Position numbers and translations under genes: made by a program | DNA from: a virus | Lineage: Duplodnaviria > Caudoviricetes | DNA: 62,530 bases | Virus record (IMG/VR): IMGVR_UViG_3300045971_000057 | Span: 1 to 62,530 of that record | Strand: one strand, 5' to 3' | Notes under the pieces: model-generated | What the model was told of the DNA's origin: nothing | Databases searched by the model: none | The model's input: only the letters and a program-made list of their open reading frames with translations | Part shown: positions 403 through 61,281 of the stretch, in pieces | How positions within the stretch are numbered: the stretch's first letter is position 1 | Layout: each line of letters starts with the position of its first letter

Positions 403-795
403 TTAGATCATTCCAAGGATCACGAGCCAAGAAGGAACACCATCAGGGCCAACACCGTCAGGCTCGACAGTGTAGCCAGTTGGAGACTTCGCATCCTCAG
501 TTCCCATGATCCATTTCTTCACGCTTGATAAGGAAGGTAGCACTGCGTTAATTTGCCAAGGCTTCAACTGATCCTTGATCTTCTCCGCAGCTAGGATTAT
601 CATCACCGCATAATCCTCTGCGGTTGAATCCTTTGGTCTCTTGATTCGTTTGGTTGCTTCCCAATTGCCTCCAATCTTCATCGTGAGAATATCTCCGGTT
701 GACCTCATACTCGCAAGGCATTGATACTTGCGACTGTAATACCGGAGAACTTCATCACCGTAGTCAGCAGGGTTGACTTTCATCTTCTTGGCCAT
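403..795 (-). CDS. Hypothetical early protein
   Basis: ORF with AAGGAAG RBS-like sequence, in tandem minus-strand array. Confidence 0.7.
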   Translation of the reverse strand: MAKKMKVNPADYGDEVLRYYSRKYQCLASMRSTGDILTMKIGGNWEATKRIKRPKDSTAEDYAVMIILAAEKIKDQLKPWQINAVLPSLSSVKKWIMGTEDAKSPTGYTVEPDGVGPDGVPSWLVILGMI

Positions 796-797
796 TG

Positions 798-1001
798 CTA
801 CTTCCTTCTGAGGTGCCCGAGACAGTTGGCGCTGTACACGTGGCTGGTTGTTTCTTGCTTACACACAGGACACTCAAAGGTCACTATGTCCCTTCCTCTG
901 ATATCCTCTTCAATATTCAGAATTGGAATATTGTCCGATTGCTCAAACCTAATTCGGCAACTGGAGCATACGATGTTGAGTGGTGTCGTTGCCTTGGCCA
1001 T
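798..1001 (-). CDS. Small zinc-ribbon protein
   Basis: CSSC...CPVC. Confidence 0.6.
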   Translation of the reverse strand: MAKATTPLNIVCSSCRIRFEQSDNIPILNIEEDIRGRDIVTFECPVCKQETTSHVYSANCLGHLRRK

Positions 1002-1205
1002 CTACTTCACGCTCACGATGTAGCCATCCTTCATCATCACCTCAGCATACCAGGTGTGAGGCTTTGGGAAGTGTGGGCCTTCCAGAGTCTCACGACCGTT
1101 TGCCTTTGGCGTTCCCATACCAGGGGCAAAGATGCCGATCTTCTGGCCAGCCGCAACGGCAAGCTTGAGTTCTTTCTTGGTCTTGAAGTTGATGTCGCAA
1201 TACAT
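1002..1205 (-). CDS. Hypothetical phage protein (MYCDINFKTKKELK...EGPHFPKPHTWYA)
   Basis: AAGGAG RBS before ATG 1205. Confidence 0.7.
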   Translation of the reverse strand: MYCDINFKTKKELKLAVAAGQKIGIFAPGMGTPKANGRETLEGPHFPKPHTWYAEVMMKDGYIVSVK

Positions 1206-1254
1206 AGTGGTGCTCCTTTGTCGGCTGTTATCGAACAGCCTGGGTTGAAAAAAA

Positions 1255-1506: not shown

Positions 1507-1751
1507 ACCACCTCACTATATCGTTTGCCCAATTTGAAGCCTCCAGACTCGATGTGGTCTTCAAGTTGCTTCATCAGTTCCTTGTTCTTCCCTTTCCACC
1601 CGAACTGGCTCTTGATGATTGTGGCCATGCTCTTGCCCTTCCGGCCCATGCCGAACATCTCCAACCGGAGGGCACTGCGCATCGACAGAAGCCTGAACAT
1701 TTCGATCTGCTCAGGAGTATCGCAAACAATCAGTTCGTTGCTCATTAGCAC
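1503..1751 (-). CDS. Hypothetical early protein
   Basis: Tandem coupled ORF. Confidence 0.65.
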   Translation of the reverse strand: MLMSNELIVCDTPEQIEMFRLLSMRSALRLEMFGMGRKGKSMATIIKSQFGWKGKNKELMKQLEDHIESGGFKLGKRYSEVV

Positions 1752-1927: not shown

Positions 1928-2072
1928 TTCTTCTCCTTGGAGATAGTGATGCGAATTTTGACGATGTTGCCATCCATCTTGATCTCAACATGATCCTCAA
2001 CAACCTCTGCTTCGAGACACCACAAAGCCTTATTGAGAGTCTTGGCCAACCATTGGAGAGTTCCCATTTTGT

Positions 2073-2378: not shown

Positions 2379-2380
2379 GG

Positions 2381-2761: not shown

Positions 2762-2762
2762 T

Positions 2763-3029: not shown

Positions 3030-3292
3030 CGTCCAGTTTTCTCATCACGGTCAAAATAGACCTCATCAGTCAGAAGCAAAAGATCATTCGTGGAGGCATC
3101 TCGGAATATCGTCACCAACTCGATGTGGTCGCAGTTCTGATCGTGCTTGAGAAATGCGATGGACTGGTATGCCTCTTTCTTCCGGTCAAACTTCCGAGTA
3201 TCAAACAGAGCCTTGCTTCCCATCGCAGACAACAACCGGAAGGTCACCTCATACTGTCGCTTTGTCTTGTGTGGAATCCCTCTGGTGTTCAT
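3008..3292 (-). CDS. Hypothetical early protein
   Basis: GAGGA RBS, tandem ORF. Confidence 0.6.
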   Translation of the reverse strand: MNTRGIPHKTKRQYEVTFRLLSAMGSKALFDTRKFDRKKEAYQSIAFLKHDQNCDHIELVTIFRDASTNDLLLLTDEVYFDRDEKTGRWTSVEM

Positions 3293-3802: not shown

Positions 3803-3803
3803 T

Positions 3804-4440: not shown

Positions 4441-4451
4441 ACAACCTCCTA

Positions 4452-5153: not shown

Positions 5154-8009
5154 TTATTTTTCCAATCCCTGGTCCACTGTTTTTTCAGTGCCTTCCAACT
5201 TCCTCCAACGCTCCACATACAGACGCCTGAATCCCTTCTGGACCTTGCCTTTCCACAGGAACCAATCACCCAATTTTCCTTCCTCTACAATGGGCGATCC
5301 AATGCGCAAATATTTGTGTCGATCAATCGTCACTTGAATAGTTCCTGTGTCATCCTCAACAGTCAAATTGAGGAACAAAGTCTGGCCACTCATCTGCCTT
5401 CCGTTGCGCTTCTGAACGAGGATGGTCTCATTGTGGTCACGCAGATTCTTTTCCTTCAATCGACCAAAGATTACAACCTCACCTTCAAACTCAGAATCAA
5501 TCTGCTCGATGTCTGCGATTGGGGTGTTGATCTTGTAGGCTGACGGGTCTGCCCTGATGTGGCCAAACTTGTCGTGGCACTCAAAGATCTGATCGTATGG
5601 AGTGGTCCCATTGGCCAGAAGATTCTTCTGCCTTGCGGTGTAGGGTTGGCCAGAACTTCTCCGGTTGATGATGTCTTCCGCAACCTTCTCACCAACACCC
5701 TTGATGCTCGTCAGACCACCAATCAACTCACCATCTTGGACGCTCCAATTCTTGTCTGACTTGTCTGGATCGAATGACTTGTATTTGAAGCCTTCCTTGT
5801 AGAGTTCACGCAACAACCGGATACACTGGTCGTCATCTCTCGCATTGCGCAGGCAGGCAGCAGCAAACTCCAAAGGGAATTTGGATTTGAGGACCACACA
5901 CCAGTAGGACACCATCGCATAGGCAACAGCATGTGAGCGATTGAAACTCCAAGATCCCATCGTGTTGATGTTCTCCCAGACCATCTTCGCATCCTCAGGC
6001 GACACACCGAGACTGGCCGCACCCTTTTCAAATCGCACCCAATACTGATCAAAGAACTCTTTGCCCAGACTCTTGGACATGGCCTTGCGCAGAGATGAGA
6101 CATCCTCCCAACTCAGCTGGCCAACCTCTCTTGCGATTTGCATCACCTGTTCCTGGTAGATGACGATTCCATAGGTGACTTTGGTCATCGGCTCACAAAG
6201 AGCATGCATGTATGCCGTTGGATGGTCACCGATGCGACGCTTTGTCCACTCAGCAGCACCACCAGAGATCAGTGGTCCTGGGCGAGCAATAGCAGTCAAT
6301 GAGGTGATGTCCTCAAAGTTCTCCACCTTGATCTGTTTGACGATTGACTGGAGTGCGTATCCTTCAAATTGGAAGATGCCGGCGAACTTCTGCTTGTTCA
6401 AAATCTCAAAGGCAGCAGCATCATCTGTTGGATAGGTCACCAACTGCTCACGTGTCCAGCCTACTTGATCGAGAACATCCTGTAGCACCGATAGGGTGCG
6501 CAGCCCCAAAGCATCAACCTTCAGAAGATCCAGAGCCTCAGCATCCTTCTTGTCGATCATTGCCGCGCCAGTGACCTTGTCCACAGAGCAGTAGTTGGCC
6601 AAAGGTTTGCTGGTGATGATGACCCCTGCCGCGTGCTGGCCGCTCTGCCTGGCGTGATTCTCTACATCAGCTGCGATCTTGAGTTGAGGATACTTCTCAA
6701 GCGTCTTGCGACCAACCTCAATCTCGTTGAAGGTGTCCAGGATACAGAAGGATGCGCGAGAGTCACCACCACTGCGCTCAATCATCGCATTTTTCAAGTC
6801 AGCCACTTCCCACGCAGGTATGTTGAGTTCCTTGGCGATGTCTCCGATTGCGCTCTTGGCTTTGTAGCGCATAATGCTGCCGATGCGGGCAACACATTCC
6901 TGGCCATAGGTCTGACGGAGATATTCAAAAACCATCTCACGCCGATCATCCTGGAAATCAATATCAATATCTGGAAGATCCTTCCGGTTGATGTCGATGA
7001 ATCGCTCAAAGAGCAGATCGTATGGAATTGGATCAATGTCGGTGATGCGCAGAAGGTAGCAGACAAGACTACCACAGGAAGATCCACGAGCAGGACCAAC
7101 CAGCATGTGCTGCTTCGCATACTTGATCAGATCCCACACGATGTAGAAGTAATCAGCAAACCCTTTCTCTGCGATCATGTCAATCTCACGGCGCAACCGT
7201 GCGGCATAAACCGGAGTAGCAAGGTCCACGTGACGCTCGATTGCCCCTTCAATACACATCTGCTCCAGAGACTTCTCTGCTTTGAAGTGCGGCAGTTCTG
7301 CGTGGCCAAGTTGAGCATTACACAGGTCAGCAATCGCATAGGTATTTTGGATGGCCCGGGCACGATCTTCTTCAGGCAGGAATGGGAACAGACGGGCCCA
7401 GGAGTAGTCATCGAGAATGTTCATGGGGCTGGTTCGCATGTGTCGATTGCGCCCAGCAACTACCTCATACACCTTCTCATCTTGGCTGCGGGGATAAAAG
7501 TTGTCGCCAGTGGCCACAATGTCAAACCCACGAGCCTGAGCAACATCCCACGATTTTTTCGTCACAGTTGGATTGATCTCAATGATCAGGTTGTCCCTCT
7601 TGGGCAGACTTCCCCACACTGGGCTGCTTCCAGAAAGGATGATGATGTCGTCACTTAGGTCAAACAGCACACCATAGTCAATGCGTGGGTGATAGTAATT
7701 GTGTTCAGTGGCCAGGGTAGTCAGAGCATACAACTCCTGGAGACCTTTGTTGTTCATTGGAAGGAAGTTCATGAAGTTCACACCCTGCTTCTCTCGCAGG
7801 TTCATATCCTCAACCACTGCCAATTCCACACCAAGGATGGGCTTCTTTCCTGCCTTCTTACATGCCTTGCTGAACTCCACGTGCCCCCAAGTTCCGTGGC
7901 GGTCACAGATGCCAATTGCTTCCTCTTTTCCACAAGCAGCAATCACCTTGTCGATTGGGCCATAGACTTCTCTGAAGCTGTATTCTGTCCGGTTGCGGAG
8001 ATTGATCAT
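5154..8009 (-). CDS. dnaE: DNA polymerase III alpha subunit-like (family C)
   Basis: N-terminal PHP-like region, GPARGSSCGSLV, LLFERF, PDIDIDF, HAAGV, KVDALGL, SFNRSHAVAY, HhH (IKGVGEK), C-terminal OB fold. Confidence 0.95.
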   Translation of the reverse strand: MINLRNRTEYSFREVYGPIDKVIAACGKEEAIGICDRHGTWGHVEFSKACKKAGKKPILGVELAVVEDMNLREKQGVNFMNFLPMNNKGLQELYALTTLATEHNYYHPRIDYGVLFDLSDDIIILSGSSPVWGSLPKRDNLIIEINPTVTKKSWDVAQARGFDIVATGDNFYPRSQDEKVYEVVAGRNRHMRTSPMNILDDYSWARLFPFLPEEDRARAIQNTYAIADLCNAQLGHAELPHFKAEKSLEQMCIEGAIERHVDLATPVYAARLRREIDMIAEKGFADYFYIVWDLIKYAKQHMLVGPARGSSCGSLVCYLLRITDIDPIPYDLLFERFIDINRKDLPDIDIDFQDDRREMVFEYLRQTYGQECVARIGSIMRYKAKSAIGDIAKELNIPAWEVADLKNAMIERSGGDSRASFCILDTFNEIEVGRKTLEKYPQLKIAADVENHARQSGQHAAGVIITSKPLANYCSVDKVTGAAMIDKKDAEALDLLKVDALGLRTLSVLQDVLDQVGWTREQLVTYPTDDAAAFEILNKQKFAGIFQFEGYALQSIVKQIKVENFEDITSLTAIARPGPLISGGAAEWTKRRIGDHPTAYMHALCEPMTKVTYGIVIYQEQVMQIAREVGQLSWEDVSSLRKAMSKSLGKEFFDQYWVRFEKGAASLGVSPEDAKMVWENINTMGSWSFNRSHAVAYAMVSYWCVVLKSKFPLEFAAACLRNARDDDQCIRLLRELYKEGFKYKSFDPDKSDKNWSVQDGELIGGLTSIKGVGEKVAEDIINRRSSGQPYTARQKNLLANGTTPYDQIFECHDKFGHIRADPSAYKINTPIADIEQIDSEFEGEVVIFGRLKEKNLRDHNETILVQKRNGRQMSGQTLFLNLTVEDDTGTIQVTIDRHKYLRIGSPIVEEGKLGDWFLWKGKVQKGFRRLYVERWRKLEGTEKTVDQGLEK

Positions 8010-8493: not shown

Positions 8494-9711
8494 TCAATAC
8501 AGCCAAGTCAACTTTTCTTTGGCTCGTGTGACTGCGGTGTACAACCAACGCTTCCTGAAGCCTCGATCCTTTTCATTCATCGCATCATCGACAAGGATCA
8601 CGTGGTCCCACTCACTGCCCTGAGACTTGTGGACTGTAATCGCATATCCATAGTCCAGTTCAATCAGGCCAATGCGTGATGGCCAAGGCTCCTCAATTGC
8701 GTCATCATGGTAGTGAACATCAAATGGATAGTTGTAGATTGGCGCCCTGCGAACAAAGCTGCCTTCATACATCAGATCCAATTCCCAGTCACCAGATGCC
8801 TCGTTGAGTTCTGTGTTGCTATCAGACAGGCACTGGACACCGTTGATGAACATGTTACCAGCGTGGGTGAGATTCTTCAGGCAGATGAGTTTCTCACCAG
8901 AGACAGGGAAGGTTGACTCATGATGCCCAAGCAACTTCCGAGTGATGCGATTGAGTTTGCGCCTGATGGTATTCCTTCCGGTCAGGATCTGATCGCATTG
9001 AGTGAAGTTGTCCAAGCTGAAGTTGGCCTTTGGCCGACGCAAGATGTGCTCAGAATCGATGAATGGGTCAATATCAATTCCCTTGCGGATGTCCATGCTC
9101 AATCGGATGATTGGGTTGCCCAAAGCCTGGCGCTGGACCTGGGTCAAGATGATGTCTGGCTTCTGAGTTGAGAAGAATCCAGAATCACCAACAGGAGGCA
9201 ACTGCCCAGGATCACCAACAAACAGAACCTTGGCGCCTGTTCTCTCCAAGTCACCCAGCATCTTGTTGGTCACCATGGAAGCCTCATCAATGATAACAAA
9301 ATCATTGGGCTTGATCTTCACATTGTCCTTGTCTGCGAAAGTGATCTTGCGCTCATTGAGCTTCACCTTCTCATCATGGATCATCTCAATCAGTTTGCTG
9401 TCCCCTGGAATATTGAGCAGCTGCTCTTCCAATCGCATCAGGTCATACAGGGATGGCGCGACAGGAACATACAACACGCTGTGGATAGTTCGCACCACCA
9501 CATTGGTGAGTTTCTTCTGAAGCACTGAAGCTGCTTTTCCGGTTGGACACAGGCAGATTGGTTCAGCACCCAGAGAGTTGATGAGGTGGTGGAGTAGGAA
9601 GGTCTTGCCAGTGCCAGCATATCCTCCCAGATACAGCATCCAACGGTCTGGATCTTTCAGCCACTCACCAATCTTTTTGACGGCATCTTCTTGCTCTGGA
9701 CTCAGGCTCAC
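8494..9711 (-). CDS. SF1B RecD/Dda-like helicase
   Basis: GYAGTGKT, IIDEASM, VGDPGQLPPV, YAITVHKSQGSEW, LYTAVTRAK; GTG start 9711. Confidence 0.92.
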   Translation of the reverse strand: MSLSPEQEDAVKKIGEWLKDPDRWMLYLGGYAGTGKTFLLHHLINSLGAEPICLCPTGKAASVLQKKLTNVVVRTIHSVLYVPVAPSLYDLMRLEEQLLNIPGDSKLIEMIHDEKVKLNERKITFADKDNVKIKPNDFVIIDEASMVTNKMLGDLERTGAKVLFVGDPGQLPPVGDSGFFSTQKPDIILTQVQRQALGNPIIRLSMDIRKGIDIDPFIDSEHILRRPKANFSLDNFTQCDQILTGRNTIRRKLNRITRKLLGHHESTFPVSGEKLICLKNLTHAGNMFINGVQCLSDSNTELNEASGDWELDLMYEGSFVRRAPIYNYPFDVHYHDDAIEEPWPSRIGLIELDYGYAITVHKSQGSEWDHVILVDDAMNEKDRGFRKRWLYTAVTRAKEKLTWLY

Positions 9712-10253
9712 AACAGACCTTCCTTGCGCAGATACTTGACGACACGAACCAGTGCCTCTACATCCGCCATCGCACGATGCGCATCCTTGTGTTCCGCACC
9801 CTCTGCAAGCTCGTGCAATTGACAAAGTCTCATTCTCTTATTCCGTATCGAAAATGAAGCCTCAACGGTGCAAATCTGCGTGGGGCACCATGGAAACTTG
9901 AACTCGCATCCATTGCGCATCAGGTCAAACCGGAGTAGCGATGTATCAAAAGACAAGTTGTGCGCAATCAGGGTTTGGGCGCCAAGAAAGAACTTGGAGA
10001 GTGGATCGATGTGCGCAACGAAAGGAAGGGCATCAGACAGCATCTCATCGGTGATGCCTGTGATCTTGATGATTTCTTCAGGAAGGGTGCGACCTGGGTG
10101 AACAAGGAACTCCAAGCGATCAACTTCCTCCAAGGTATCAAAGTCAACCTTGATGGCTGCGAACTCAATGATCTGCGGCTGGTCATCGAGTGGTGTGGCC
10201 AGAGGTTTGACGAGTCCAGTGGTCTCAGTGTCAAAGATGATTGCGTGGTTCAT
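9708..10253 (-). CDS. DEDDh 3'-5' exonuclease (Pol III epsilon-like)
   Basis: IFDTETTG, AHNLSFD, HRAMADV. Confidence 0.9.
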   Translation of the reverse strand: MNHAIIFDTETTGLVKPLATPLDDQPQIIEFAAIKVDFDTLEEVDRLEFLVHPGRTLPEEIIKITGITDEMLSDALPFVAHIDPLSKFFLGAQTLIAHNLSFDTSLLRFDLMRNGCEFKFPWCPTQICTVEASFSIRNKRMRLCQLHELAEGAEHKDAHRAMADVEALVRVVKYLRKEGLL

Positions 10254-11122
10254 TTGTAATCCTTCACAAAGTGGTGGCATTCTGCGACAGACTTCATAGA
10301 CGCACCAAAATGGACTTCAAATTCGGTGTGTAGTTTCACAGGGAACTTTCGACCATCATGAGTCCAAGACCCATCATTCCAGCGAGTGCGAACCCAGTGC
10401 TGAACATTCTCAGCAATCACCTTGCTGTTGTGGATTGAATCTGGAGGTTGATTCTCAGTCAACTTGTGGACATTGCGCAGAAGCGTTGGGTTGAAGAACT
10501 GCTTGGCTGCGTAGTATCCAGAAGCAACGATTGGATATGACGCAGCAGTTTCTTCAAGGCCACCAGAAAGGCCAACAACCTCATTCAAGAACACACCACA
10601 AGTCTCGATTGTGTTGCGAAGGAATAGGCCACGCGATGTAGCAATCAGTCCGATGGTTGTTGGCTTGATCTTGTATTGCTGAGGCATCCCTCCAAGAGCA
10701 CCAACACAGCAGACAACTCCGCACTTCTTGTAGTCATCCATGTAGTCCAGCACCTCATCATATCGCTCACCTGAGGATCTTGGGAATTGCTTGGTGCCTG
10801 GAGAGAACTCCATGTTGTCGTCGCCAAAGCAATAGTAGTCAACACCAGGGAACAGCAAGGCTGCTTCTTGTCGAAGTCTGGTCATGCTTGGAGCAACTTC
10901 TGGATGCCTGATGGAATCCGACATTGCGATGCGGCATTCAAAACCAGCATCTTCAACTTTCTTTTTTGCCTCAATAGCAGAATCGACTGTCCACGGAGAT
11001 TGGCAGCACAACGCAAAAGCTGCTCTGCCTCTGAGGTTGCTGATGTGCTGGAGTGAGCCATAGATGAACTCATCAAACTCATCAGGGTGAATTGATGGGA
11101 TGACGAACGCAAATCTGCTCAT
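10250..11122 (-). CDS. Putative GT-A fold glycosyltransferase
   Basis: N-terminal FVIPS strand, SMTRLRQEA...DYYCFGDDNMEF (DxD-like), later LEET acidic motif. Confidence 0.6.
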   Translation of the reverse strand: MSRFAFVIPSIHPDEFDEFIYGSLQHISNLRGRAAFALCCQSPWTVDSAIEAKKKVEDAGFECRIAMSDSIRHPEVAPSMTRLRQEAALLFPGVDYYCFGDDNMEFSPGTKQFPRSSGERYDEVLDYMDDYKKCGVVCCVGALGGMPQQYKIKPTTIGLIATSRGLFLRNTIETCGVFLNEVVGLSGGLEETAASYPIVASGYYAAKQFFNPTLLRNVHKLTENQPPDSIHNSKVIAENVQHWVRTRWNDGSWTHDGRKFPVKLHTEFEVHFGASMKSVAECHHFVKDYK

Positions 11123-13054: not shown

Positions 13055-13056
13055 GG

Positions 13057-14501: not shown

Positions 14502-14537
14502 CAGAACTCCTGAAATTGTTGGTTGAATTCCTTTGTC

Positions 14538-14575
14538 CAAACGCAGGGCATGTCGTCAGCCATGCCCTGCGTTTG
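14538..14575 (-). terminator. Strong hairpin after basic-protein gene (terminator or processing stem)
   Basis: CAAACGCAGGGCATG / CATGCCCTGCGTTTG 15-bp stem; no clear U tract. Confidence 0.55.
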
Positions 14576-26270: not shown

Positions 26271-26275
26271 GAGCA

Positions 26276-36876: not shown

Positions 36877-36931
36877 CCGGAGAGTCCAGGTGACTCTCCA
36901 TTCGCGCTGAGACAGCGCAAGGAGCAATGAG

Positions 36932-51521: not shown

Positions 51522-54500
51522 GTGCCTGTGGTCAATATTCGACATATGAAGATGGATGAAGATACTGACGCCATCATCTCGTCAGGAAGTGGAACAGGCG
51601 CCACTGCTACTGTTGCTCGCAAGCAATATTTGAAATTCAATTGGGTCCATACCGAATCGTTGCCTGCTGGAATGCTCAAGGGATTCCGATTGGTGATCTA
51701 TGAGGGTGCTGACCCGAATGATGCCTCTCAATATCTTCTTGAGCCAAAGGTTCTTGGCCCGACAGAGACTGGTATTGTCATCCCAATCACGATTGCCTCT
51801 ACCAGAATCATCAATGCCTCGATCCAGTCCATCTACGCAAACGGCAACGAGAGTAGCTGGCGGAACATTGGTGGAACAGTCACTGCTGACCCAGACACCA
51901 TCATTCTAGCCACTGCTGCTGGTCTTGATGCTGTGAAGTTGACTGCTGATAATGCGGCAAATGCGGCAGGAGCTGCAAACCTCCTGATTGGGAACATTGC
52001 CTCTGACTCAATTCTTTCTCCAAGTGAAAAGCCAGACATCATCCAGAACTACAATGTGATCATCTCAGAGCAGTCAGGGATCCAAGGACAGGCAACTGCC
52101 TATGGAACTGCTACTGAGCTGACTGCTTACAATTCTGCGGTGACTGCTCTGAGCACTTATCTGGCCACGCTGACTGCTCCAGTTCTTTGGTCAACCATCC
52201 CTGGAGATACTGCGATTGTTGGCGCTACCTTCCGTGCTGCGTTTGCTCTGGTGTACACCAAACGCCAGGAAGTTCTGAACGCAATTGTGGCCAAGGCAAA
52301 GTTGCTTGCTGATGCTGCTCAGAGTAGCGGTTGGTCAATGGCCAAGCCTTTTGAAATTTGGGATGGAGGATACATCCACCCAACAGTTACAATTGCTGAT
52401 GGCAAATCAGGAAAGACTGCTCTGCGAATGACTGCTAACGCAGCTACTGATGATGGTGTGTATCACAAGATTGATCCTCTTCGCAAATACAAGACTCGAT
52501 TCTGGGCACGTGCGGCTGCTGGAACTAATGGCATTCTCTACTTCTGCCTTCGACAGTTCACTGATAATGTTGGTACCACTTGCGCAGGCAATGGTGGCCG
52601 ATCACCATACAGCCCAAGCGCAGTTCCAGCAAATACTGCTTGGGTGCTTTATGAGCATGTTTGGAAGGGAACAGACTTCCAGAGTGGCGTCAAATATGTG
52701 AAGTGTGATCTGCTAGGCAACTACAATGGAACTGTCGGATATTGGGAAGTCCAAGACTTTGCCTTCTATGATTGTACAGAATCGTTCGATGCCCAGGTGG
52801 TGATTGAGGCTGTACAAAATGACGGCATCTTGAGCAGGAGTGAGAAACCTGATCTGATCAGTGACTACTCTACTGCGGTCGCAAATAAGGATTCTGTTTT
52901 CGCAAAGGCAAGATCCCTTGGCGTGAGCACTGAGGCTCTGACCACCGCATTCACTGCTCTGACTTCTTTCTTGACCTCTCTTGGTTTGACGACCACTGCG
53001 TGGAGTGACACCACGATTGATACTGCTCTTCCTGACTCAACAACGCTCGGAAATGTCTGGAAGGCTTTTGATACTGAATTGATCAATTTGATGCTGGCTT
53101 GCCAAACGGCAAAGCGTGGCCTTGATTGGGTGATTGAGGTCAACTGTAGCATCACCAGCATCCCAACAACTATCAGCGGTGGGTGGGCAAACTATGCTGC
53201 TATCCGTGATGGTGCCAAGATCCTTCTGACTGCTCAGACAAACCCTGCTGAGAATGGAATATACACCTCAAATGATACTGCGGTGTCTGGCGCAACTCAA
53301 TACTCACCAACCCTTGCTACTGCTACTGGTATTGGTTCGTATGCCAACTCCTCAAACCACTATGACTTTGGTCCCACAGTTGATGCCAATGGTGAGATGA
53401 TCACTTCTGGGACAAGTTCTAAGGTGGTGGTGTATTCCGGTTGGTCTGGGGCGGGCACTGCCGGCACTCTACGCTTTGTTGGGGATGCTCTCGTCAATCT
53501 AGGCTCTGTTGGGGGAACTGTCTATCTTGAATACAGCACTGATGCTGGCTCCACGTGGACTGCTTGGACTAACACAGCAGTTGACGCAACACTGAACGCA
53601 ACCAGCCCAACATTAACCGGAGTTGTTCAGGCCAACTTGCGAGTGCGAGCGATCTGTGAAGGTGCGGTGTATAAGGAATATGTTTATGATGAGTTCCTGT
53701 ACAAGCCTCGGTGGACGATTGTTGATACAACTGTGACCTCTCTGAAGGCTCGTGCCTGCTGGTTTGAATCTACTGGATCGGTGGCTGGGAAAATCTTCAC
53801 CAAGAACAATGATGTTGGCCAGGGTGAAGTTTACTCAGTGCTCAATGGAACTCGAATCAACCAGGATGCTGCTGTTGCTCAGAAGAGTGGCCAGACCTTG
53901 ACTATGGCTTGGTCTCCATCAGCCTCTGGTGCTGGTGGAACTCTCACTGGGGTGACTGCTACTGCTCCACTACAATCTGGAGGATCAGCAGCAGTCCCAA
54001 ACATCTCTCTTGTTCAGGACTCAAACAACCGATTGGTTACTGATGCTGAGAAGTCTACGTGGAATGGCAAGCAAGCAGCAGGTTCATATTCTTTAACAAC
54101 GCACAATCACTCAGGAACATATGAGCCAGTAATTGCTGCAGGAACCACATCCAAGTTTTGGCGTGGTGACAAAGTATGGACTGAAGATAATATCTTCCCA
54201 TATGACACTCCAGCAACTGGAACAAAAAATGATTGGTCAACTCGTGCCCCGAGATCTGGATTTTATCAAGCAGATACCACTGCTCACACAAACATGCCCA
54301 CTGGCACTGGAACTGCTGGCTACATGCACATCATCAATTGCCAGCACAGCAACACCGCAAATAATTTTGCCCTTCAAATTGCTACAAGTTTTGGCCCTGG
54401 TGGTGGTGATAATTATTCAGATATATTTTGGCGAGCAACTGGAGATGCTGCTAGCACAAGACCGTGGCGCACCTTCATAGATTCAGGAAACATAGCAAGT

Positions 54501-56093
54501 CAGACTGTTGCCCACGCAAATGGATTGAAGGGATACAACATCCCTGCCTTGGTTGGCACCGGATCGCTGAACTGGAATGGTAGTGGATGGGAAATATCTC
54601 AAGTCAGCTTCGCACTTAATGCCACAAATGCCTCCAATGCTACTGGCGTAACAGTCCACAATGCTTCTTCTTCACCAGGCAACTGGCCAGTCATGAGCTA
54701 CACTGGGTTACTAAATGACTATGCCCAGGTCCAAGCATCATCCAATGTGACTATCAATCATGTTGCTGGAATAGTCAATGCGGTAACATTCAATGGCTCT
54801 CTGAATGGTAATGCCTCCAGTGCAACAAACATCACCCAATACACAATCAATCAGAATCTTGGAACAGGCAACCAAGTAACATTTGACACTGTGGTAACTG
54901 GAAATAATGGCAATGGCACAAACTACCGAATTGGCGACGATTGCTGGATTGGAGATATAAATATAGCAAATACCTTCCGTGTCCAGGGCGTCCAAAATGC
55001 TAATGCTGGATATATTTGCTTTGGTAATGGGGACACAGTTGCTCTTGGTAGGACAGGAACTGGCGCGTTGACTTATGGCGGCAACACAATCTATCATTCA
55101 GCAAATATCCCTACTTGGAATCAGAGCACCTCAGGCAATGCTGCAACTTCGACTTCATTCTCAACAGATAGAACAAACTACAGATCATATACATCAGCTG
55201 CTGTTGCTGGCGAATTAATGTGGAAAAATTATGGTAATGGGCACACCATTATTGATGCGTCTAATTCTACTGCTCCAAATGGAACAACAATTAGCAATTC
55301 TGATTCTGCAGTCGCATGGTCTGGTTCATATCCAATGCTCGTTGGGTGGAATGGATCGAGCACTTATGGAGTCAAAGTTGACCGATCCAGGTATTCTGAA
55401 TCGACAGGGTATGCTGATTGGTCTGGGGTTGGAAATAAACCAGCAAATCTCTTTTCTTATGGTGCTGCTGGTTGGGCAATTGATGCTAACTGGATGGCTG
55501 GAAATTCATCAGGATTCACATACGCAGTTGGTGCTCCATGGAGCGGTGCTGTTGCTAGGTTCTATGCTGGTGGATATGATCTACAATTGAATTCTGATTA
55601 TGGCGGAAGCAATCACCTGTCTTGGAGATCATACAATGGTGATGTTGGCTCTTGGAATCCTTGGCGTGAAATAGTTCACTCAGGGAATATTGCTAGTCAA
55701 AATGTGGACTCTGTTGATGGCCAGCACTTTGCTTGGAGCAACAACTCAAACTCTCCAGCCTATCTTTGGGCAGCAGATAGCAACGGATCTGCCTACCTGT
55801 GCGCTCGTGGTTCGATGTCTGTTAATTTTGCTACCAGCGCAACCAATGCCACCAATCCAACGGTCAACTACAACAATGACTCCAACTCCACCTATCAGAT
55901 GGTGTGGGGTTCTGGGAATGCGATCTATGGAACTGGTGGAATATATTGCAACCCATATCTTGATCGCTTGTATGCTACTGACTTTGAAGCCAATGGTGCT
56001 GGTAGTGCTGGTGGCTTCATCCTACACGACACTGGTGGTCAACGCTATCGGATCTATGTGTCTGGTGGCCAGCTATATGTTGCGAGCATCTAA
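51522..56093 (+). CDS. Large tail fibre / receptor-binding protein
   Basis: Duplicated D.ILS.SEKPD helical repeats, carbohydrate-binding-like domain, fibre repeats. Confidence 0.8.
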   Translation: MPVVNIRHMKMDEDTDAIISSGSGTGATATVARKQYLKFNWVHTESLPAGMLKGFRLVIYEGADPNDASQYLLEPKVLGPTETGIVIPITIASTRIINASIQSIYANGNESSWRNIGGTVTADPDTIILATAAGLDAVKLTADNAANAAGAANLLIGNIASDSILSPSEKPDIIQNYNVIISEQSGIQGQATAYGTATELTAYNSAVTALSTYLATLTAPVLWSTIPGDTAIVGATFRAAFALVYTKRQEVLNAIVAKAKLLADAAQSSGWSMAKPFEIWDGGYIHPTVTIADGKSGKTALRMTANAATDDGVYHKIDPLRKYKTRFWARAAAGTNGILYFCLRQFTDNVGTTCAGNGGRSPYSPSAVPANTAWVLYEHVWKGTDFQSGVKYVKCDLLGNYNGTVGYWEVQDFAFYDCTESFDAQVVIEAVQNDGILSRSEKPDLISDYSTAVANKDSVFAKARSLGVSTEALTTAFTALTSFLTSLGLTTTAWSDTTIDTALPDSTTLGNVWKAFDTELINLMLACQTAKRGLDWVIEVNCSITSIPTTISGGWANYAAIRDGAKILLTAQTNPAENGIYTSNDTAVSGATQYSPTLATATGIGSYANSSNHYDFGPTVDANGEMITSGTSSKVVVYSGWSGAGTAGTLRFVGDALVNLGSVGGTVYLEYSTDAGSTWTAWTNTAVDATLNATSPTLTGVVQANLRVRAICEGAVYKEYVYDEFLYKPRWTIVDTTVTSLKARACWFESTGSVAGKIFTKNNDVGQGEVYSVLNGTRINQDAAVAQKSGQTLTMAWSPSASGAGGTLTGVTATAPLQSGGSAAVPNISLVQDSNNRLVTDAEKSTWNGKQAAGSYSLTTHNHSGTYEPVIAAGTTSKFWRGDKVWTEDNIFPYDTPATGTKNDWSTRAPRSGFYQADTTAHTNMPTGTGTAGYMHIINCQHSNTANNFALQIATSFGPGGGDNYSDIFWRATGDAASTRPWRTFIDSGNIASQTVAHANGLKGYNIPALVGTGSLNWNGSGWEISQVSFALNATNASNATGVTVHNASSSPGNWPVMSYTGLLNDYAQVQASSNVTINHVAGIVNAVTFNGSLNGNASSATNITQYTINQNLGTGNQVTFDTVVTGNNGNGTNYRIGDDCWIGDINIANTFRVQGVQNANAGYICFGNGDTVALGRTGTGALTYGGNTIYHSANIPTWNQSTSGNAATSTSFSTDRTNYRSYTSAAVAGELMWKNYGNGHTIIDASNSTAPNGTTISNSDSAVAWSGSYPMLVGWNGSSTYGVKVDRSRYSESTGYADWSGVGNKPANLFSYGAAGWAIDANWMAGNSSGFTYAVGAPWSGAVARFYAGGYDLQLNSDYGGSNHLSWRSYNGDVGSWNPWREIVHSGNIASQNVDSVDGQHFAWSNNSNSPAYLWAADSNGSAYLCARGSMSVNFATSATNATNPTVNYNNDSNSTYQMVWGSGNAIYGTGGIYCNPYLDRLYATDFEANGAGSAGGFILHDTGGQRYRIYVSGGQLYVASI

Positions 56094-56806: not shown

Positions 56807-57196
56807 ATGTCCCCGCCAACCACCAAGGAGAAAAAGATGGCTGCTCTGACTGAAGTATCCAACGCAAAAATTTTGAAAGAGATTGTTGCCTACAGTCTCA
56901 ACATCAATCGGTCCATCATGCCTGGGACTGTGGATGCGCACTACAACATCAATATGGCCTATGGTCCTGTTGAGTTCTATGTCGATGATGCTGGGAACAA
57001 GACCAAGCTGCTGTCTTTTGGCGGCAATGCTGGGCCCAATGGTGAAGTGAAGAACATCACCATGACTGCCCAGAAGGTTGGCGAGATGTTCATGAAGCCT
57101 GTGACTGTGGATGGTGTCGCCACCACGCTTGGCGAACTGCTCGCTGATATGATGGATGCTGAAATCCGAATTGCCCTGAACCTTCCTCCGGTTTAG
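56807..57196 (+). CDS. Hypothetical protein
   Basis: AAGGAG RBS before MAALTEV. Confidence 0.6.
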   Translation: MSPPTTKEKKMAALTEVSNAKILKEIVAYSLNINRSIMPGTVDAHYNINMAYGPVEFYVDDAGNKTKLLSFGGNAGPNGEVKNITMTAQKVGEMFMKPVTVDGVATTLGELLADMMDAEIRIALNLPPV

Positions 57197-57614: not shown

Positions 57615-58213
57615 TGGACCTGCTGGATGCTGCTCTGGAATATACCCTGCGTGAAGAGGGTGGCTGGTCGAATGTGAAAGGTGACAAGGGTGGTGCTACC
57701 AACTGGGGAATCACCATCGGCGTGTTCCTGTCCTGTGGTAAGGATTCTGATGTGCTTGGATTCCCCGCAGATCTTGATGGCGATGATGATGTCGATGCTG
57801 ACGATCTGAAGCTGCTCACCAAGGAACAGGCCAAGGAGATTTACAGGCTCAAGTATGACCAGATGGACAAACTTGGTGAGTGTGACCCTCGCATCAAGAT
57901 CAAGCACTTCGACATTGGCGTCAACTGTGGGACTCACACAGCAAACAAGATCCTCCAGCGCGCAATCAATCGCGTGTTTGGGCCATACCTTGATGTTGAT
58001 GGACAGATCGGCATGAAGTCAGTGAGAGGAATCTCCGGTTGTAATCCAGATGCCCTTCTGACTGGTCTGTGCGCGGAACAGCTTGCCCATTATGAGGCAA
58101 TCGTTGAGCATGATCCGACCCAGGCAAAGTTCCTTGGAACTGAGGACAAGCCAAAGGGTTGGAGGAATCGTGCGGCGCGCAAACCGGAGGTTACTGGTGG
58201 ACTTGATTCCTAG
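57611..58213 (+). CDS. Endolysin, glycoside hydrolase family 108
   Basis: REEGGWSN..GDKGGATNWGIT, FDIGVNCG, VDGQIG, GWRNR. Confidence 0.88.
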   Translation: MMDLLDAALEYTLREEGGWSNVKGDKGGATNWGITIGVFLSCGKDSDVLGFPADLDGDDDVDADDLKLLTKEQAKEIYRLKYDQMDKLGECDPRIKIKHFDIGVNCGTHTANKILQRAINRVFGPYLDVDGQIGMKSVRGISGCNPDALLTGLCAEQLAHYEAIVEHDPTQAKFLGTEDKPKGWRNRAARKPEVTGGLDS

Positions 58214-58496
58214 GCCAAGTTGGTTTCATCTTTGGAAGTCTGCTGCTGTCCCTGGTGACGGGGCCAGCAGCACCAAGATGGTTTATCTGTGGTGTGGTGG
58301 AGCAGGAACAGTTGCTGCCTTCATCATGACCATGGCCTTCTGCGGTCATGCCTTCTACACCAAGAAGGCTGACTTGGTTTTTGCTGGGGCAGTTGCTGCG
58401 ATGTGGACTGCCTTGTTTGGCTTCTCAACGAGTGCTCAGAACAACAAGGCAAGGGTTGATCAGGCCGTCAATGTGATTGCGGAGGATAAGAAATGA
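58197..58496 (+). CDS. Probable holin (2 TM)
   Basis: GGAGG RBS + GTG 58197; two hydrophobic helices, charged C-tail. Confidence 0.6.
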   Translation: MDLIPRPSWFHLWKSAAVPGDGASSTKMVYLWCGGAGTVAAFIMTMAFCGHAFYTKKADLVFAGAVAAMWTALFGFSTSAQNNKARVDQAVNVIAEDKK

Positions 58497-59173
58497 CCAT
58501 CAATGGTTTTGAGATCACCAAGGATCAGATTCTTGCCGCAATCATGGCACTTTTCTTCCTTGCCTTTGGTCTGTTTCTTGGAAAGAAAATATGGCAACCC
58601 AAAACCGTCACCGTGATAGAGAAAGCAGAACCAGCAATCAAGCAGAAGGATGGGAGCACAGTTCTGGAGAGAAAAGAGACAGACCCAAAGGCCAAGGCAG
58701 CAACCGATCTTCCTCCAGGGTCAAAGTTGAAGAGAAAGATCCAAGTGGTTGTGCGGCCGCCAGAGCCATCGTCCGACAATGCTCCAAAGATTCCAAACTC
58801 CAATGCCAGTGGATTGGTGGGCCCAGGTGGGGAGAATCCTTCATCGGAGACAAAGATCCCATCCAGGGATGTGACGGTTGATATAAGCGTGGTTGAGATG
58901 CCTGATGGAACAACTCGTGTAGTTGGGAAAACAAGCGATGGTTCAACCATTATTTCAGGATTGGATCAGCCTGTCGAACCAGTGACCCAGGTAAAGCCTC
59001 AGCCGAATGCGCTACACATCGCCTACAGGCCTTCAGGGACTGGATATGGGGTGCTTTACACCAGAGACTTCCTAAAAAGATTCATCGCTGGGGTCCAACT
59101 TCAGATGATCCAAGACCCAGGCATCCGAGGTATGCGCTCAGAAGCCTGGGTCAGCCTTGGCTATCGTTGGTGA
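58493..59173 (+). CDS. Membrane-anchored lysis protein (spanin-like)
   Basis: N-terminal TM, Pro-rich linker, beta-rich end SLGYRW. Confidence 0.45.
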   Translation: MTINGFEITKDQILAAIMALFFLAFGLFLGKKIWQPKTVTVIEKAEPAIKQKDGSTVLERKETDPKAKAATDLPPGSKLKRKIQVVVRPPEPSSDNAPKIPNSNASGLVGPGGENPSSETKIPSRDVTVDISVVEMPDGTTRVVGKTSDGSTIISGLDQPVEPVTQVKPQPNALHIAYRPSGTGYGVLYTRDFLKRFIAGVQLQMIQDPGIRGMRSEAWVSLGYRW

Positions 59174-59578
59174 TTAATGCTTGCGGTTGGAATAAATTAC
59201 ATCCCACACTTCATCAACCCAACCTTCATGGAAGGGAATCACGATGTGGTTTGTTCCTTGGATGCTCTTCTCAGCAGCCCTGGAATCATTCCCCCAGACG
59301 ATGATGACTTCATCAGTAGCAGTATGATGAAGGATCGTCAGGCACATGCCGCCATTCTTCCACTCAGTTTCCAACCACAGGGCCTGGAGTGGTTCATATC
59401 TGATCCTGTCTGCCTTGAAATTCTGCTTGGTCTCGATCCAGAATGAGAATCCCATCTTGATGCCATAGATGTCTGGGATGCCCACGGCTGTTGCTCTGCT
59501 TTCAACTCTCTCTGTCTTTACTCCATGCTCAGCCAGACCGTTGCGGAGTTTCTTGCTGAAGGCTGACTCACTCATCAC
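59174..59578 (-). CDS. VRR-NUC / Holliday-junction-resolvase-like nuclease
   Basis: ESAF, RVE, GIPD, WIETK, Q..W. Confidence 0.75.
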   Translation of the reverse strand: MMSESAFSKKLRNGLAEHGVKTERVESRATAVGIPDIYGIKMGFSFWIETKQNFKADRIRYEPLQALWLETEWKNGGMCLTILHHTATDEVIIVWGNDSRAAEKSIQGTNHIVIPFHEGWVDEVWDVIYSNRKH

Positions 59579-61281
59579 TACTCCATGAACATTGAGATGG
59601 GATCTTGGGTGACCATGTCTGCGATTGACTTCTTTTTGCGCAGTGCGTTGATGATCTTTCTGTCGATTGACTTCTCAGCCTCAAGGTCTGTATAGACAAC
59701 AGTGCCTTCTGTTCCAATTCGGTGGTTGCGATCTTCACCCTGGAGTCTTGTCTCAAGATCAAAGTCATTGCTGTAGTAGATGGCGTTGAGAGCAGCAGTG
59801 AGAGTCAACCCTGTGGACCCTGCCTTGTTGCTGATGAAAAACTTCTTCCGGTTTGACTTGTCCTGGAAGGCTTTGACTGCGAACTCACGATCCTTTGTGG
59901 ATGTTGCTCCATAGTATGTGAGGGCGTGCTCTCCAAACTTCTTTGCCATCACTTGGATGTCTGCTACAAATCTTGACCAGATGATGATTTTCCCATCGCC
60001 GGCATCCTCGATGACTTCATCCAAAGCCTCCATCCGTGGATTATGTGGAAGAGGTCTTGGTTGAGCCTCTGGGAACCAACCGCAGGCAATCTGCTGTAAC
60101 CGGAGTAGCTTGGTGATGGCGATTGCCTTGGCCATCTCTTGGCCTTTCTCAAGACCCAGTGTCTTCTCCAACTCATCGAGTGCGCTGGTGCGAACTTGGT
60201 CATACAGCATGCGCTGGAACTTCTCCATCTCAAATGGATGACGCTTGTAGGTCTTGTCTGGAAGGTCAAGGCAATCCTTCTTCAGAACTCGATGCGAATA
60301 TCCATCAATGCGAGCAATCAACTCAGGCAGGTTCTGGTAGGCAACAATCGAGCGATTCTCAAAGCCACCCATGACGCAGTATTCAGATCGGAAGGCTGTG
60401 AAGGTATCGTGGCCGATGATCATTGGGTCCAAGAATCGGAACTGGCTGAACAGATTCTCAACTCCACGAGTAACAGGAGTCCCAGTCAGGATGCGCCGAT
60501 ATTTTGCTTTGCGTCCAACCTTGGTCAGATACTTGGTTCGTTCAGCACCATGGGATTTGATCCGTTGAGACTCATCAACTACCATGATTGCCTTGGAATT
60601 TTTCAGCCAGTGCTCCATCAGAGCCTTGGCCTTGCTGCTGATGAATCCTTCTACATTGAAGGTTATGATGCGAAGCTTGCCTACCTCTTTGGTGGCTGCC
60701 TCCATCAACTCCAGATACTCTTTTGGCTTGAGGCTTGCTTTGTACACACCAGTCCACGCAGGAATATCTCCCAACAGATGCGCAGGGATCTCATTCAAGA
60801 TCCAGTTGGTGTGAACTCCATTCGGAGCAATAACGATGAGTGTATCCACTTCCTCTTTGGTGTAGAGGTAGGCTGTGGTGTCCACTACAACCTTGGATTT
60901 GCCACATCCCTGCTCATGGAATAGAGCAAACACACTCATGTCTCTGCTGATCAAGAAGGCTTTGAGTTGGTGGTCGAATGGTTTGGTCTTGAATGGATGG
61001 CCACCATCATCAAACCATTCTTCAATTTTCTTCTGCGCAGAAACAGTCTCACCTAGGATGCGAGCATCATGGAAGTCTTTGAGGTTGACTTCTGCTCCTT
61101 CAATCCATTGTGCCTCTGGCCAGTTCTTGATGATGTAGGCAATCGAAGCACCAGTGGGTTTGAAAATAAATTTGCGCTCAATCCACTTGTGTCGGCCAGG
61201 CAATGCGCTGAGCAAAGCAAAGTTGGGACCCACCTTACACTCAACAACCAAATCCCCAGCCTTGAAGGGTCGAATTATCAC
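59578..61281 (-). CDS. SF2 SNF2-like helicase
   Basis: EQGCGKS, VVDESQRIK, LTGTP, GSTGLTL, QGEDRNHRIG; GTG start 61281. Confidence 0.9.
   Translation of the reverse strand: MIIRPFKAGDLVVECKVGPNFALLSALPGRHKWIERKFIFKPTGASIAYIIKNWPEAQWIEGAEVNLKDFHDARILGETVSAQKKIEEWFDDGGHPFKTKPFDHQLKAFLISRDMSVFALFHEQGCGKSKVVVDTTAYLYTKEEVDTLIVIAPNGVHTNWILNEIPAHLLGDIPAWTGVYKASLKPKEYLELMEAATKEVGKLRIITFNVEGFISSKAKALMEHWLKNSKAIMVVDESQRIKSHGAERTKYLTKVGRKAKYRRILTGTPVTRGVENLFSQFRFLDPMIIGHDTFTAFRSEYCVMGGFENRSIVAYQNLPELIARIDGYSHRVLKKDCLDLPDKTYKRHPFEMEKFQRMLYDQVRTSALDELEKTLGLEKGQEMAKAIAITKLLRLQQIACGWFPEAQPRPLPHNPRMEALDEVIEDAGDGKIIIWSRFVADIQVMAKKFGEHALTYYGATSTKDREFAVKAFQDKSNRKKFFISNKAGSTGLTLTAALNAIYYSNDFDLETRLQGEDRNHRIGTEGTVVYTDLEAEKSIDRKIINALRKKKSIADMVTQDPISMFME

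Follow-up and report, generated by a model that had tools for sequence, protein, structure and literature searches.

An over-represented asymmetric octamer set in ordered inverted pairs across a metagenomic phage genome

The viral record IMGVR_UViG_3300045971_000057 (Duplodnaviria; Caudoviricetes), analyzed here over its whole length of 62,530 bp and called the window below, carries the short asymmetric word AACCGGAG 26 times, about five times as often as its proteins and dinucleotides together would predict. The word belongs to a motif, AACCGGAR, whose copies on opposite strands lie close to one another in a preferred order, common to both transcription arms, with widely varying spacing. The motif is very probably a selected cis-acting site of some kind, and its ordered pairs are tentatively read as sites at which the replication machinery of the phage is loaded or primed.

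A preliminary description of this genome had listed the 26 exact copies of AACCGGAG, 14 on the plus strand and 12 on the minus strand, and a recount finds each one at its coordinate and on its strand; the nine copies of TTCCGGTT that it listed are likewise correct, and the one-mismatch variants retaining CCGG number 20, where about 19 had been claimed. That description held that the enrichment should vanish under codon- and dinucleotide-preserving shuffles if it were spurious, and it persists. One hundred dinucleotide-preserving shuffles yield a mean of 0.91 copies (standard deviation 1.03, maximum 4), 500 within-gene synonymous-codon shuffles yield 5.9 (maximum 11), and 400 dicodon shuffles, which keep every protein and every dinucleotide count exactly, yield 5.0 (maximum 8); about four copies lie outside the shuffled positions and are fixed in the codon and dicodon nulls. 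The variant AACCGGAA occurs 11 times against 1.6 in the codon and 1.2 in the dicodon shuffles, and the core ACCGGA occurs 49 times against 16.6 in the latter. Order-3 and order-4 Markov models both single out AACCGGAG as the most extreme of all 8-mers, and the other top outliers are its own sub-words or extensions. A codon or dinucleotide artifact is rejected, since the excess survives the dinucleotide, codon, Markov, and dicodon nulls.

The word has sharp limits. Only AACCGGAA is enriched among the 24 single-base variants, the remainder standing at or below background, which argues for a sharp site and against a compositional gradient. When the 49 ACCGGA/TCCGGT cores are aligned, A occupies position -1 in 39, and position +1 is G in 32 and A in 13. 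This alignment and the sole enriched variant together define the true motif as AACCGGAR, with 37 sites, about 5-fold above dicodon expectation and about 28-fold above dinucleotide expectation. The palindromes ACCGGT and TCCGGA, which the preliminary scan did not see, are both absent from the genome, against 6.8 and 5.7 expected from dicodon shuffles. A drive by repair or deamination was also considered and is rejected, because the single-base variants that it should have swept into the motif are not depleted (AACTGGAG, 9 against 5.9; AACCAGAG, 2 against 2.7).

The motif stands in a genome with strong oligonucleotide biases (observed/expected ratios of 0.53 for CG, 0.37 for TA, and about 1.45 for CA/TG). 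CCGG occurs 76 times, a low count compared with codon shuffles (147) and the expected one compared with dicodon shuffles (73.8); what is abnormal is the distribution of CCGG over its flanking contexts, not its total. ACCGGA accounts for 49 of these occurrences, three-fold above the dicodon expectation, and GCCGGC for 12, two-fold above it (6.2), with all other flank classes depleted (15 against about 107 in codon shuffles). Counted in another way, CCGG outside ACCGGA occurs 27 times against about 57, and all flanks except GCCGGC are depleted. Several further words show the same combination of avoidance and exempt context: ACGT occurs 19 times against 49.6, 17 of them inside CACGTG, and GTAC 19 times against 72.4, 15 of them inside TGTACA (dicodon shuffles). 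TGCA is depleted as well (36 against 298), and CGATCG is absent against 13.7 expected from codon shuffles. The tolerated hexamers CACGTG (17 against 10.2) and TGTACA (15 against 8.8) are only about 1.7-fold above dicodon expectation, and the 5- to 28-fold excess of AACCGGAR is therefore more than that of a tolerated context. As a separate observation, TGGCCA occurs 96 times against 48.8; it is read mainly as xTG-GCC-Axx, not as Trp-Pro.

The excess is maintained at a cost to the proteins that bear it. Forty-four of the 49 core sites lie inside genes, 20 in the sense and 24 in the antisense direction, and the other 5 fall between genes or at gene ends. As the preliminary description had stated, the sites occupy all three frames and show no orientation with transcription of the kind known from stoperators. 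They draw on rare codons: of those counted genome-wide, they take up 18 of 65 CGG and 9 of 57 CCG. At 14 sites the encoded residues can be aligned in genes common to five whole relatives. Four of these keep the residues of the family and make the word by codon choice, as where L-R-L is the same in all five relatives, which use other codons there. At seven sites a residue on which all aligned relatives agree is replaced in this phage only (SRS to NRS, TR- to NR-, DP/EV to TPV, PAI to PPV, -I- to -R-, --D to LRY, and TPPR to ETGS), and the remaining three fall at variable positions. The earlier statement that protein sequence fails to explain the sites agrees with the shuffles that preserve proteins and dinucleotides, all of which leave the excess intact. 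The broader proposal of a selected cis-code holds in its first part, a selected signal being indicated by the shuffles, the rare codons, and the residue changes; the functions then listed for it are not narrowed to one.

The second property of the word is its arrangement. Nineteen pairs of adjacent ACCGGA cores lie at most 500 bp apart, 15 of them in the order (-,+), 3 in the order (+,-), and 1 as (-,-). Permutation of positions and strands, suggested earlier as a check on spacing and orientation, never produces this bias: 15 (-,+) pairs are reached by none of 20,000 random placements and none of 20,000 strand permutations (maximum 12), and dicodon shuffles contain a mean of 1.4 and a maximum of 4 such close pairs. 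The 13 TCCGGT...ACCGGA pairs first described are all real, and two more were found (9537/9928 and 36426/36875). The common order is 5'-YTCCGGTT...AACCGGAG-3', with a start-to-start distance of 16 to 449 bp (spacer of 8 to 441 bp), and it is identical in both transcription arms; a pair of this kind is its own reverse complement, which makes the order a true invariant. The spacers show a GC content of 0.36 to 0.60, close to the genome mean, and no extended symmetry. The sites, merged within 500 bp, form 30 units whose gaps are more even than random (coefficient of variation of 0.52 against 0.72, P = 0.025). The early/replication arm is the more densely occupied, with 25 sites in 25.6 kb compared with 24 in 36.7 kb.

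Nineteen of the 49 sites are unpaired. Degenerate partners for them were sought and rejected: matches of at least 6 of 8 letters occur on the expected side of 15 of these sites and on the wrong side of 18. The two members of a pair may differ slightly, the right member ending in G in 13 of 15 pairs and the left member in 8 of 15 (Fisher p = 0.035), a difference too weak to build on. In the six mixed pairs TTCCGGTT is always on the left and AACCGGAG always on the right; the strand distribution of AACCGGAA, 9 on the minus and 2 on the plus strand, is also a weak signal (p = 0.065).

Table 1. Sites of the ACCGGA core and genes discussed in the text; distances are start to start
Feature	Position	Strand or order	Description
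Pair 1	693-747	(-,+)	CTCCGGTT (693-700) ... TACCGGAG (740-747), 47 bp
Pair 2	3180-3241	(-,+)	TTCCGGTC ... AACCGGAA, 54 bp
Pair 3, DnaE-like polymerase gene	5659-5822	(-,+)	CTCCGGTT ... AACCGGAT, 156 bp
Pair 4, polymerase gene	6982-7216	(-,+)	TTCCGGTT ... AACCGGAG, 227 bp
Pair 5	9537-9935	(-,+)	TTCCGGTT ... AACCGGAG, 391 bp
Pair 6	14224-14279	(-,+)	CTCCGGTT ... AACCGGAG, 48 bp
Pair 7, archaeo-eukaryotic-type (AEP) primase gene	19159-19314	(-,+)	CTCCGGTT ... AACCGGAG, 148 bp
Pair 8, gene boundary	22209-22232	(-,+)	CTCCGGTT-N8-AACCGGAG, 16 bp
Pair 9	24523-24613	(-,+)	TTCCGGTT ... AACCGGAG, 83 bp
Pair 10	36426-36882	(-,+)	CTCCGGTC ... AACCGGAG, 449 bp
Pair 11	42677-42735	(-,+)	CTCCGGTT ... AACCGGAG, 51 bp
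Pair 12, J-like tail gene	50005-50188	(-,+)	TTCCGGTT ... AACCGGAG, 176 bp
Pair 13	53435-53622	(-,+)	TTCCGGTT ... AACCGGAG, 180 bp
Pair 14	58033-58189	(-,+)	CTCCGGTT ... AACCGGAG, 149 bp
Pair 15, SNF2-like helicase gene	59846-60105	(-,+)	TTCCGGTT ... AACCGGAG, 252 bp
Opposite-order neighbors	12357-12746	(+,-)	TACCGGAG at 12357, AACCGGAA(-) at 12739, 382 bp
Opposite-order neighbors, portal gene	33557-33784	(+,-)	AACCGGAG at 33557, AACCGGAA(-) at 33777, 220 bp
Three sites, divergent intergenic region	25991-26604	(+,-,-)	GACCGGAG(+) at 25991, AACCGGAG(-) at 26179, GACCGGAG(-) at 26597
Single site	1663-1670	+	AACCGGAG
Single site	7987-7994	-	AACCGGAC
Single site	8976-8983	-	GACCGGAA
Single site	15756-15763	+	TACCGGAG
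Single site	16959-16966	-	GACCGGAT
Single site	27754-27761	-	AACCGGAA
Single site	31026-31033	-	AACCGGAG
Single site	45534-45541	-	AACCGGAG
Single site	46634-46641	+	AACCGGAA
Single site	48573-48580	-	AACCGGAG
Single site	54557-54564	+	CACCGGAT
Single site	57186-57193	-	AACCGGAG
DnaE-like (pol III alpha) polymerase	5154-8009	-	NCBIfam 1e-168; PHROG
DnaQ-like exonuclease	9708-10280	-	Family scan
S-adenosylmethionine (SAM)-methyltransferase-fold protein, 164 aa	13057-13551	-	phrog_6636, 4e-45; missing from five relatives
AEP-type primase	18143-19681	-	phrog_21866; Pfam AEP-TOTE, 3e-9; putative reader of the word
Three paralogs	1-321, 14583-14915, 61525-62310	All -	Histone-H1-like Lys/Ala/Pro-rich tail; putative readers of the word

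The genome that carries these sites is that of a novel siphovirus with a DnaE-like polymerase and an AEP primase. Its first 145 bases are repeated directly at 62386-62530 with one mismatch, and because of this end repeat of about 145 bp the genome is probably closed on itself and complete, at about 62.4 kb, at odds with the record's own label of linear and 80% complete. It is present in two pond-metagenome runs, of which one may be its source, and the copy in the second run differs at one base in 20 kb. A gene caller based on codon statistics predicts 76 genes with 92% of the sequence coding, those to the left of about 25.6 kb being transcribed leftward and those beyond about 26.3 kb rightward; scans against at least one family library (Pfam, PHROGs, or NCBIfam) covered 55 of them, the other 21 being small genes. 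In addition to the replication genes of Table 1, the left arm and the right-hand end encode two SF1 helicases and one SNF2-like helicase (8494-9825, 15158-16663, and 59578-61374), ThyX, a HAD phosphatase, and proteins like gp32, gp33, and gp34 of Pam3, and the right arm comprises a siphovirus head and a lambda-like tail module with a GH108 lysin. The three paralogs share a conserved C-terminal domain of about 60 residues with the pattern N-P-x-R-E-G ... G-G. Their family is almost exclusively viral and is matched by no Pfam, PHROG, or NCBIfam model; in a structure atlas the domain falls in virus-only clusters, and its weak look-alikes outside them include PriA rows, which serve as a lead only.

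Several neighboring features deserve separate mention. ThyX, the SAM-methyltransferase-fold protein, and a Rossmann/FAD-type protein (phrog_4828) adjoin one another at 12215-14540 on the minus strand and may form a nucleotide- or DNA-modification cassette. An open reading frame of the head module (34891-35472, plus strand) matches ADP-ribosyltransferase Pfam families (8.6e-10 and 1.5e-7). The divergent intergenic region at 25650-26275 holds words of the GGAAGCGG type, both direct and inverted, at 25742-25768, 25874-25895, and 25922-25947, as well as two inverted CTATATAG boxes (25823 and 26089), and it contains the only between-gene ACCGGA neighbors in the reverse (+,-) order.

The favored explanation is that a DNA-handling protein recognizes AACCGGAR, a site under positive selection that depends on its orientation and is overlaid on coding sequence. 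Its working unit would be the divergent pair 5'-YTCCGGTT-(8 to 441 bp)-AACCGGAG-3', in which each strand bears one copy of the word. There would be about 30 units, 15 of them ordered pairs and the others single or differently arranged, spread fairly evenly over the genome. The pairs would serve as distributed entry points for the phage replication machinery, comprising the AEP-type primase, the SF1 and SNF2 helicases, and the DnaE-like polymerase, with one complex loaded, or one primer begun, per strand at each pair and with opposite directions of action. Such a mechanism would require a fixed relative order of the two sites and no fixed spacing. A fixed order combined with free spacing suggests that the reader has a direction and works on both strands; the order does not fit a rigid dimer or a hairpin, because either order would serve those. 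The explanation supposes that a protein reads the word, that this reader belongs to the replication module, and that its action is priming or loading. Strand-symmetric loading or priming is put forward as a possibility of less than even likelihood. The more general reading, in which divergent pairs stand every 2 to 5 kb along the genome and a DNA-tracking machine would use them as bidirectional places to start or load, or as polar boundaries, is rather doubtful. If true, the replicon or domain architecture would be a multi-site one embedded in coding sequence, and the relatives would employ the same half-site in palindromic form (YTCCGGAR). Two precedents touch on these ideas. The AEP-family PrimPol of phage NrS-1 is reported to use an 8-nt recognition sequence (PMC8718748), and the primase RepB' of RSF1010 is described as beginning replication at two inverted repeats, ssiA and ssiB (PMC8567376).

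Relatives of the phage bear on this explanation through the replication module, the only part that five whole relatives (G001-G005) share with the window. This module is common, at 46 to 64% identity, to many mostly marine uncultured viruses with unrelated structural genes. Searches with the polymerase, from which the best 80 loci of viral contigs and the best 80 of metagenome contigs were taken, give identities of 55 to 64%, again mostly from marine sources, and none of these loci is enriched in AACCGGAG. No closer relatives came from the portal, at most 33% identical to its matches, or from a megablast search of phage records, which returned nothing; the relatives of the J-like tail protein (41 to 56% identity in the best segment) are GC-rich, prophage-like records without the motif. 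At most one CCGG occurs in 45 of the 80 and 39 of the 80 relative loci. Every CCGG is part of TCCGGA in G002 (26 of 26) and G003 (22 of 22), as are 21 of 112 in G004; in these three genomes the flanks of TCCGGA give YTCCGGAR, with one site per 2 to 2.5 kb. Family-wide, TCCGGA and ACCGGT stand at 178:9 and 117:5, compared with 381:221 in 113 unrelated viral loci. The relatives' YTCCGGAR has CCGGAR in common with the window word and, being palindromic, presents one site on both strands. This resemblance is only suggestive of a link between the word and the replication module, because one and the same 4-mer underlies both words. In homologous genes, a window site lies at most 12 residues from a TCCGGA site of the relatives at 6 of 12 places (null mean of 2.0, P ~0.01).

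A search for a gene whose presence correlates with CCGG loss among the relatives was also made, and its two best clusters resemble phylogenetic passengers, not nucleases. The relatives have word biases of their own. GGCC occurs solely as TGGCCA in four of the five whole relatives (20/20, 27/27, 18/19, and 22/22), and AGGCCT is absent from all five (G001-G005, L284-L298). G001 (L284-L286) holds a single CCGG in 54 kb and 19 copies of TGGATCCA against about 2.4 expected, which may be another lineage-specific iterated palindrome, and both G001 and G005 are rich in AGATCC/GATCCA.

A number of points weigh against paired loading or priming sites. The spacers, at a GC content of 0.36 to 0.60, are not AT-rich and thus show no resemblance to unwinding elements, and a genome of 62 kb with at least 15 initiation modules would be out of the ordinary. 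Known primase sites are given as mostly 3 to 4 nt long, and the NrS-1 8-mer is noted as later found not to be strictly required, with GTGA/GTGG favored (PMC8718748). The 19 single sites have no degenerate partner on the expected side. The primases of the relatives are only 46 to 48% identical to that of the window, and the many relatives with at most one CCGG imply that a CCGG-based site is not essential to the module. The common CCGGAR is weak evidence if both words are tolerated CCGG contexts. The proximity of the window sites to TCCGGA depends on a 12-residue threshold that was chosen post hoc, after the polymerase had been inspected, and of the 7 sites in other genes only 2 lie close.

Cutting of one strand at each AACCGGAR by a site-specific nickase, as in T5-, phiKMV-, and tf-like phages, would turn the pairs into opposite-strand nicks 16 to 450 bp apart. 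Nick motifs are the best-documented class of short asymmetric words lying inside phage genes at a similar density: phage tf is reported with 14 TACTRTGMC sites (PMC3517423) and Rembedalsseter, where 0.7 would be expected, with 13 WACTRTGAC sites, of which 88% are coding (PMC11780129). In the consensus given for the phiKMV group, CGACxxxxxCCTA/CTCCGG, the letters directly 3' of the nick are CTCCGG (PMC3517423), the first six of the complement CTCCGGTT. The missing ACCGGT and TCCGGA would be expected if a site on both strands led to a double-strand cut. In every case described in these two reports, however, the motif is one-stranded (PMC3517423; PMC11780129), while the window carries 14 copies on one strand and 12 on the other, and the relatives' palindromic TCCGGA would suffer cuts on both strands under the same system. 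Six-frame searches of the window found no HNH and no VRR_NUC domain, and the 55 scanned genes include no other clear nuclease; the only hint of one is a weak endonuclease/helicase PHROG match at 59174-59578. Nicking is judged fairly unlikely.

If AACCGGAR were instead the asymmetric site of a host or phage methyltransferase, it would be a safe context of the counter-selected CCGG that has been recruited for some benefit. The heavy, restriction-type avoidance with context exemptions (ACGT, GTAC, TGCA, CGATCG, and CCGG) is in keeping with this, as is the small SAM-methyltransferase-fold gene of the phage, absent from five relatives. A site of this form, asymmetric and 8 bp long with a single degenerate position, is typical of Type IIG, Type III, and BREX-type methylases. 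Over-abundant short words are also reported to follow methyltransferase specificities in cyanobacteria (PMC4390886). Protection accounts for tolerance, however, and not for an excess paid for in rare codons and residues and far above the roughly 1.7-fold of the other exempt contexts; it gives no reason for the order of the pairs. Six-frame searches of the window and of four relatives gave no match to the DNA methylase Pfam families PF00145, PF01555, PF02086, and PF02384, the 164-residue methyltransferase has no visible DNA-recognition part, and the variant counts given above show no signature of deamination or very-short-patch repair. In the literature, none of the matches listed for CCGGAG in connection with a methyltransferase motif was relevant. 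A methylation target of this kind is improbable.

Of similarly low probability is a genome-wide operator or compaction code, loosely stoperator-like, in which the sites would be bound by the three paralogs. The phage encodes all three, and the viral character of their family and the PriA rows among its look-alikes, again as a lead only, speak for a role of this kind. A heterodimer of paralogs would explain both the asymmetric halves (AACC|GGAG) and the missing "homodimer" palindromes ACCGGT and TCCGGA, and in Cluster A mycobacteriophages a monomeric repressor is described as using many asymmetric sites genome-wide (PMC9283540). Nothing ties the paralogs to the word, however. The sites lack transcriptional orientation, no repressor or integrase is seen in the 55 of 76 genes scanned, and the spacings, from 16 to 450 bp, vary too widely for two small proteins to touch directly once bound.

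A Chi-like host word, at which the sites would stop a RecBCD/AddAB-type nuclease and shield linear replication or packaging intermediates from either side, is quite improbable. It would suit an asymmetric 8-mer whose density counts more than its exact position and which is needed in both orientations on a molecule attacked from both ends. Given the polarity of RecBCD, an enzyme that approached a pair from outside would, in the observed order, meet the active site first. Among the genes scanned, none was recognized as encoding a nuclease inhibitor. Either order would protect almost equally, which leaves the 15:3 bias unexplained, and among 120 matches listed from 185,579 species genomes there is neither an enriched genome nor one with phage-like pairs. 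The only genome matched twice among them, the metagenome-assembled bacterial genome G006, contains 313 copies of the word against 221 of a control word, no real excess, and its pairs belong to a repeated element. A ThyX search of the species genomes found no relative.

Outside the window and its relatives the word is scattered. The paired pattern occurs in at least 115 loci of viral contigs, essentially as chance singles; the only kin among the listed loci are L134 and L181, with one pair and no enrichment, and the TGCA/GTAC/ACGT signature of the window is found in none of the viral loci listed. In an unrelated GC-rich viral contig (L106, 2787-2907), eight copies of AACCGGAG, six direct and two inverted, lie within about 120 bp in AAACCGGAGCAA-like units, which looks like an iteron or operator cluster with the same word. 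The repeated element of G006 (L383, 7470-7610; L395, 2538-2678) is about 120 bp long, carries CTCCGGTT-N20-AACCGGAG, and occurs in many places. A literature search for AACCGGAG or CTCCGGTT as a whole word, with supplementary files outside its range, returned a barcode list only.

Two explanations remain at the lower end. At the RNA level, the transcribed pair 5'-CUCCGGUU...AACCGGAG-3' would form an 8-bp long-range stem that masks the Shine-Dalgarno-like GGAG; the reverse-complement symmetry of the pair would give the same RNA from genes of either strand, and an upstream arm with the anti-Shine-Dalgarno-like CUCC and a downstream arm with GGAG would account for the order. Such a stem is very improbable, as 19 sites are unpaired, loops would reach 441 nt, the 8-mers are not flanked by extended complementarity, the six mismatched pairs (TTCCGGTT with AACCGGAG) show no covariation, and the GGAG copies are not followed by start codons. 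That the word has no function and is a by-product of mutation or repair bias or of composition is hardly credible: the genome has an extreme dinucleotide bias and several TG..CA palindromes about 2-fold over-represented, TGGCCA among them, but the excess remains with proteins and all dinucleotides fixed, the variants expected from a repair drive are not depleted, and bias cannot yield the pair order or lineage-specific residue replacements.

Among known systems, the nick motifs of T5-, phiKMV-, and tf/LUZ24-like phages are similar in that a short asymmetric word, mostly intragenic and lineage specific, occurs far above chance; they are described as 7 to 9 nt long, with about 4 to 14 copies per genome of 40 to 46 kb and a function still unexplained (PMC3517423; PMC11780129). 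The window word differs in lying equally on both strands, in its ordered inverted pairs, and in a density about three times as high. The stoperators of Cluster A mycobacteriophages likewise comprise dozens of asymmetric sites across a phage genome and are read by a phage protein (PMC9283540). In the window, the sites are 8 bp long, intragenic, and without transcriptional polarity, and no repressor is seen in the 55 scanned genes. Stoperators, in contrast, are 13 bp long, mostly intergenic, and oriented with transcription in temperate phages that have an immunity repressor.

The highly iterated palindromes (HIPs) of cyanobacteria, HIP1 and the alternate HIPs, are reported as octamers 15- to 300-fold over-represented both in open reading frames and in the stretches separating them, maintained by selection, non-randomly spaced, and linked to methyltransferases, with an unresolved function; one alternate HIP is RCCGGY (PMC5861425; PMC4390886). 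The window word is similarly in large excess both inside open reading frames and in the gaps separating them, for reasons other than codon use. It is asymmetric, phage-borne, and set in ordered pairs, whereas HIPs are palindromes of cellular chromosomes; a matching methyltransferase is lacking among the four families sought in six frames in the window, and GCGATCGC has no occurrence there. The likeness to ssiA and ssiB of RSF1010 lies in inverted sites on opposite strands together with an AEP-fold primase in the same replicon. Those sites are described as 40-nt hairpins, one pair in a single origin next to iterons (PMC8567376). The window shows, as putative sites, at least 15 pairs of bare 8-mers over the whole genome. 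Chi is an asymmetric octamer defined by a host nuclease (RecBCD/AddAB) and by its excess and skew in the host chromosome; the value of both octamers lies in density, and Chi has no need for ordered close pairs. In Type III restriction avoidance (T7 and EcoP15I), a phage keeps the sites in one orientation only, while the window word is enriched in both orientations, interleaved.

The finding is a variant of the genome-wide iterated-word phenomenon, set apart by its ordered inverted pairs. It also shows that words under positive selection, when they contain an avoided core, can go unnoticed in first-pass "restriction avoidance" profiles. The strength of the signal has sufficed to alter conserved residues of the polymerase, the primase, and the helicases, and in a small, probably complete genome with few candidate readers the question of its use is directly testable. 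Genome-wide selected words such as Chi, uptake sequences, HIP1, stoperators, and nick motifs have each pointed to a DNA-handling machine, HIP1 and the phage nicks being still without explanation after decades. To these the window word adds a property that none of them shows, a strict relative order of opposite copies combined with free spacing.

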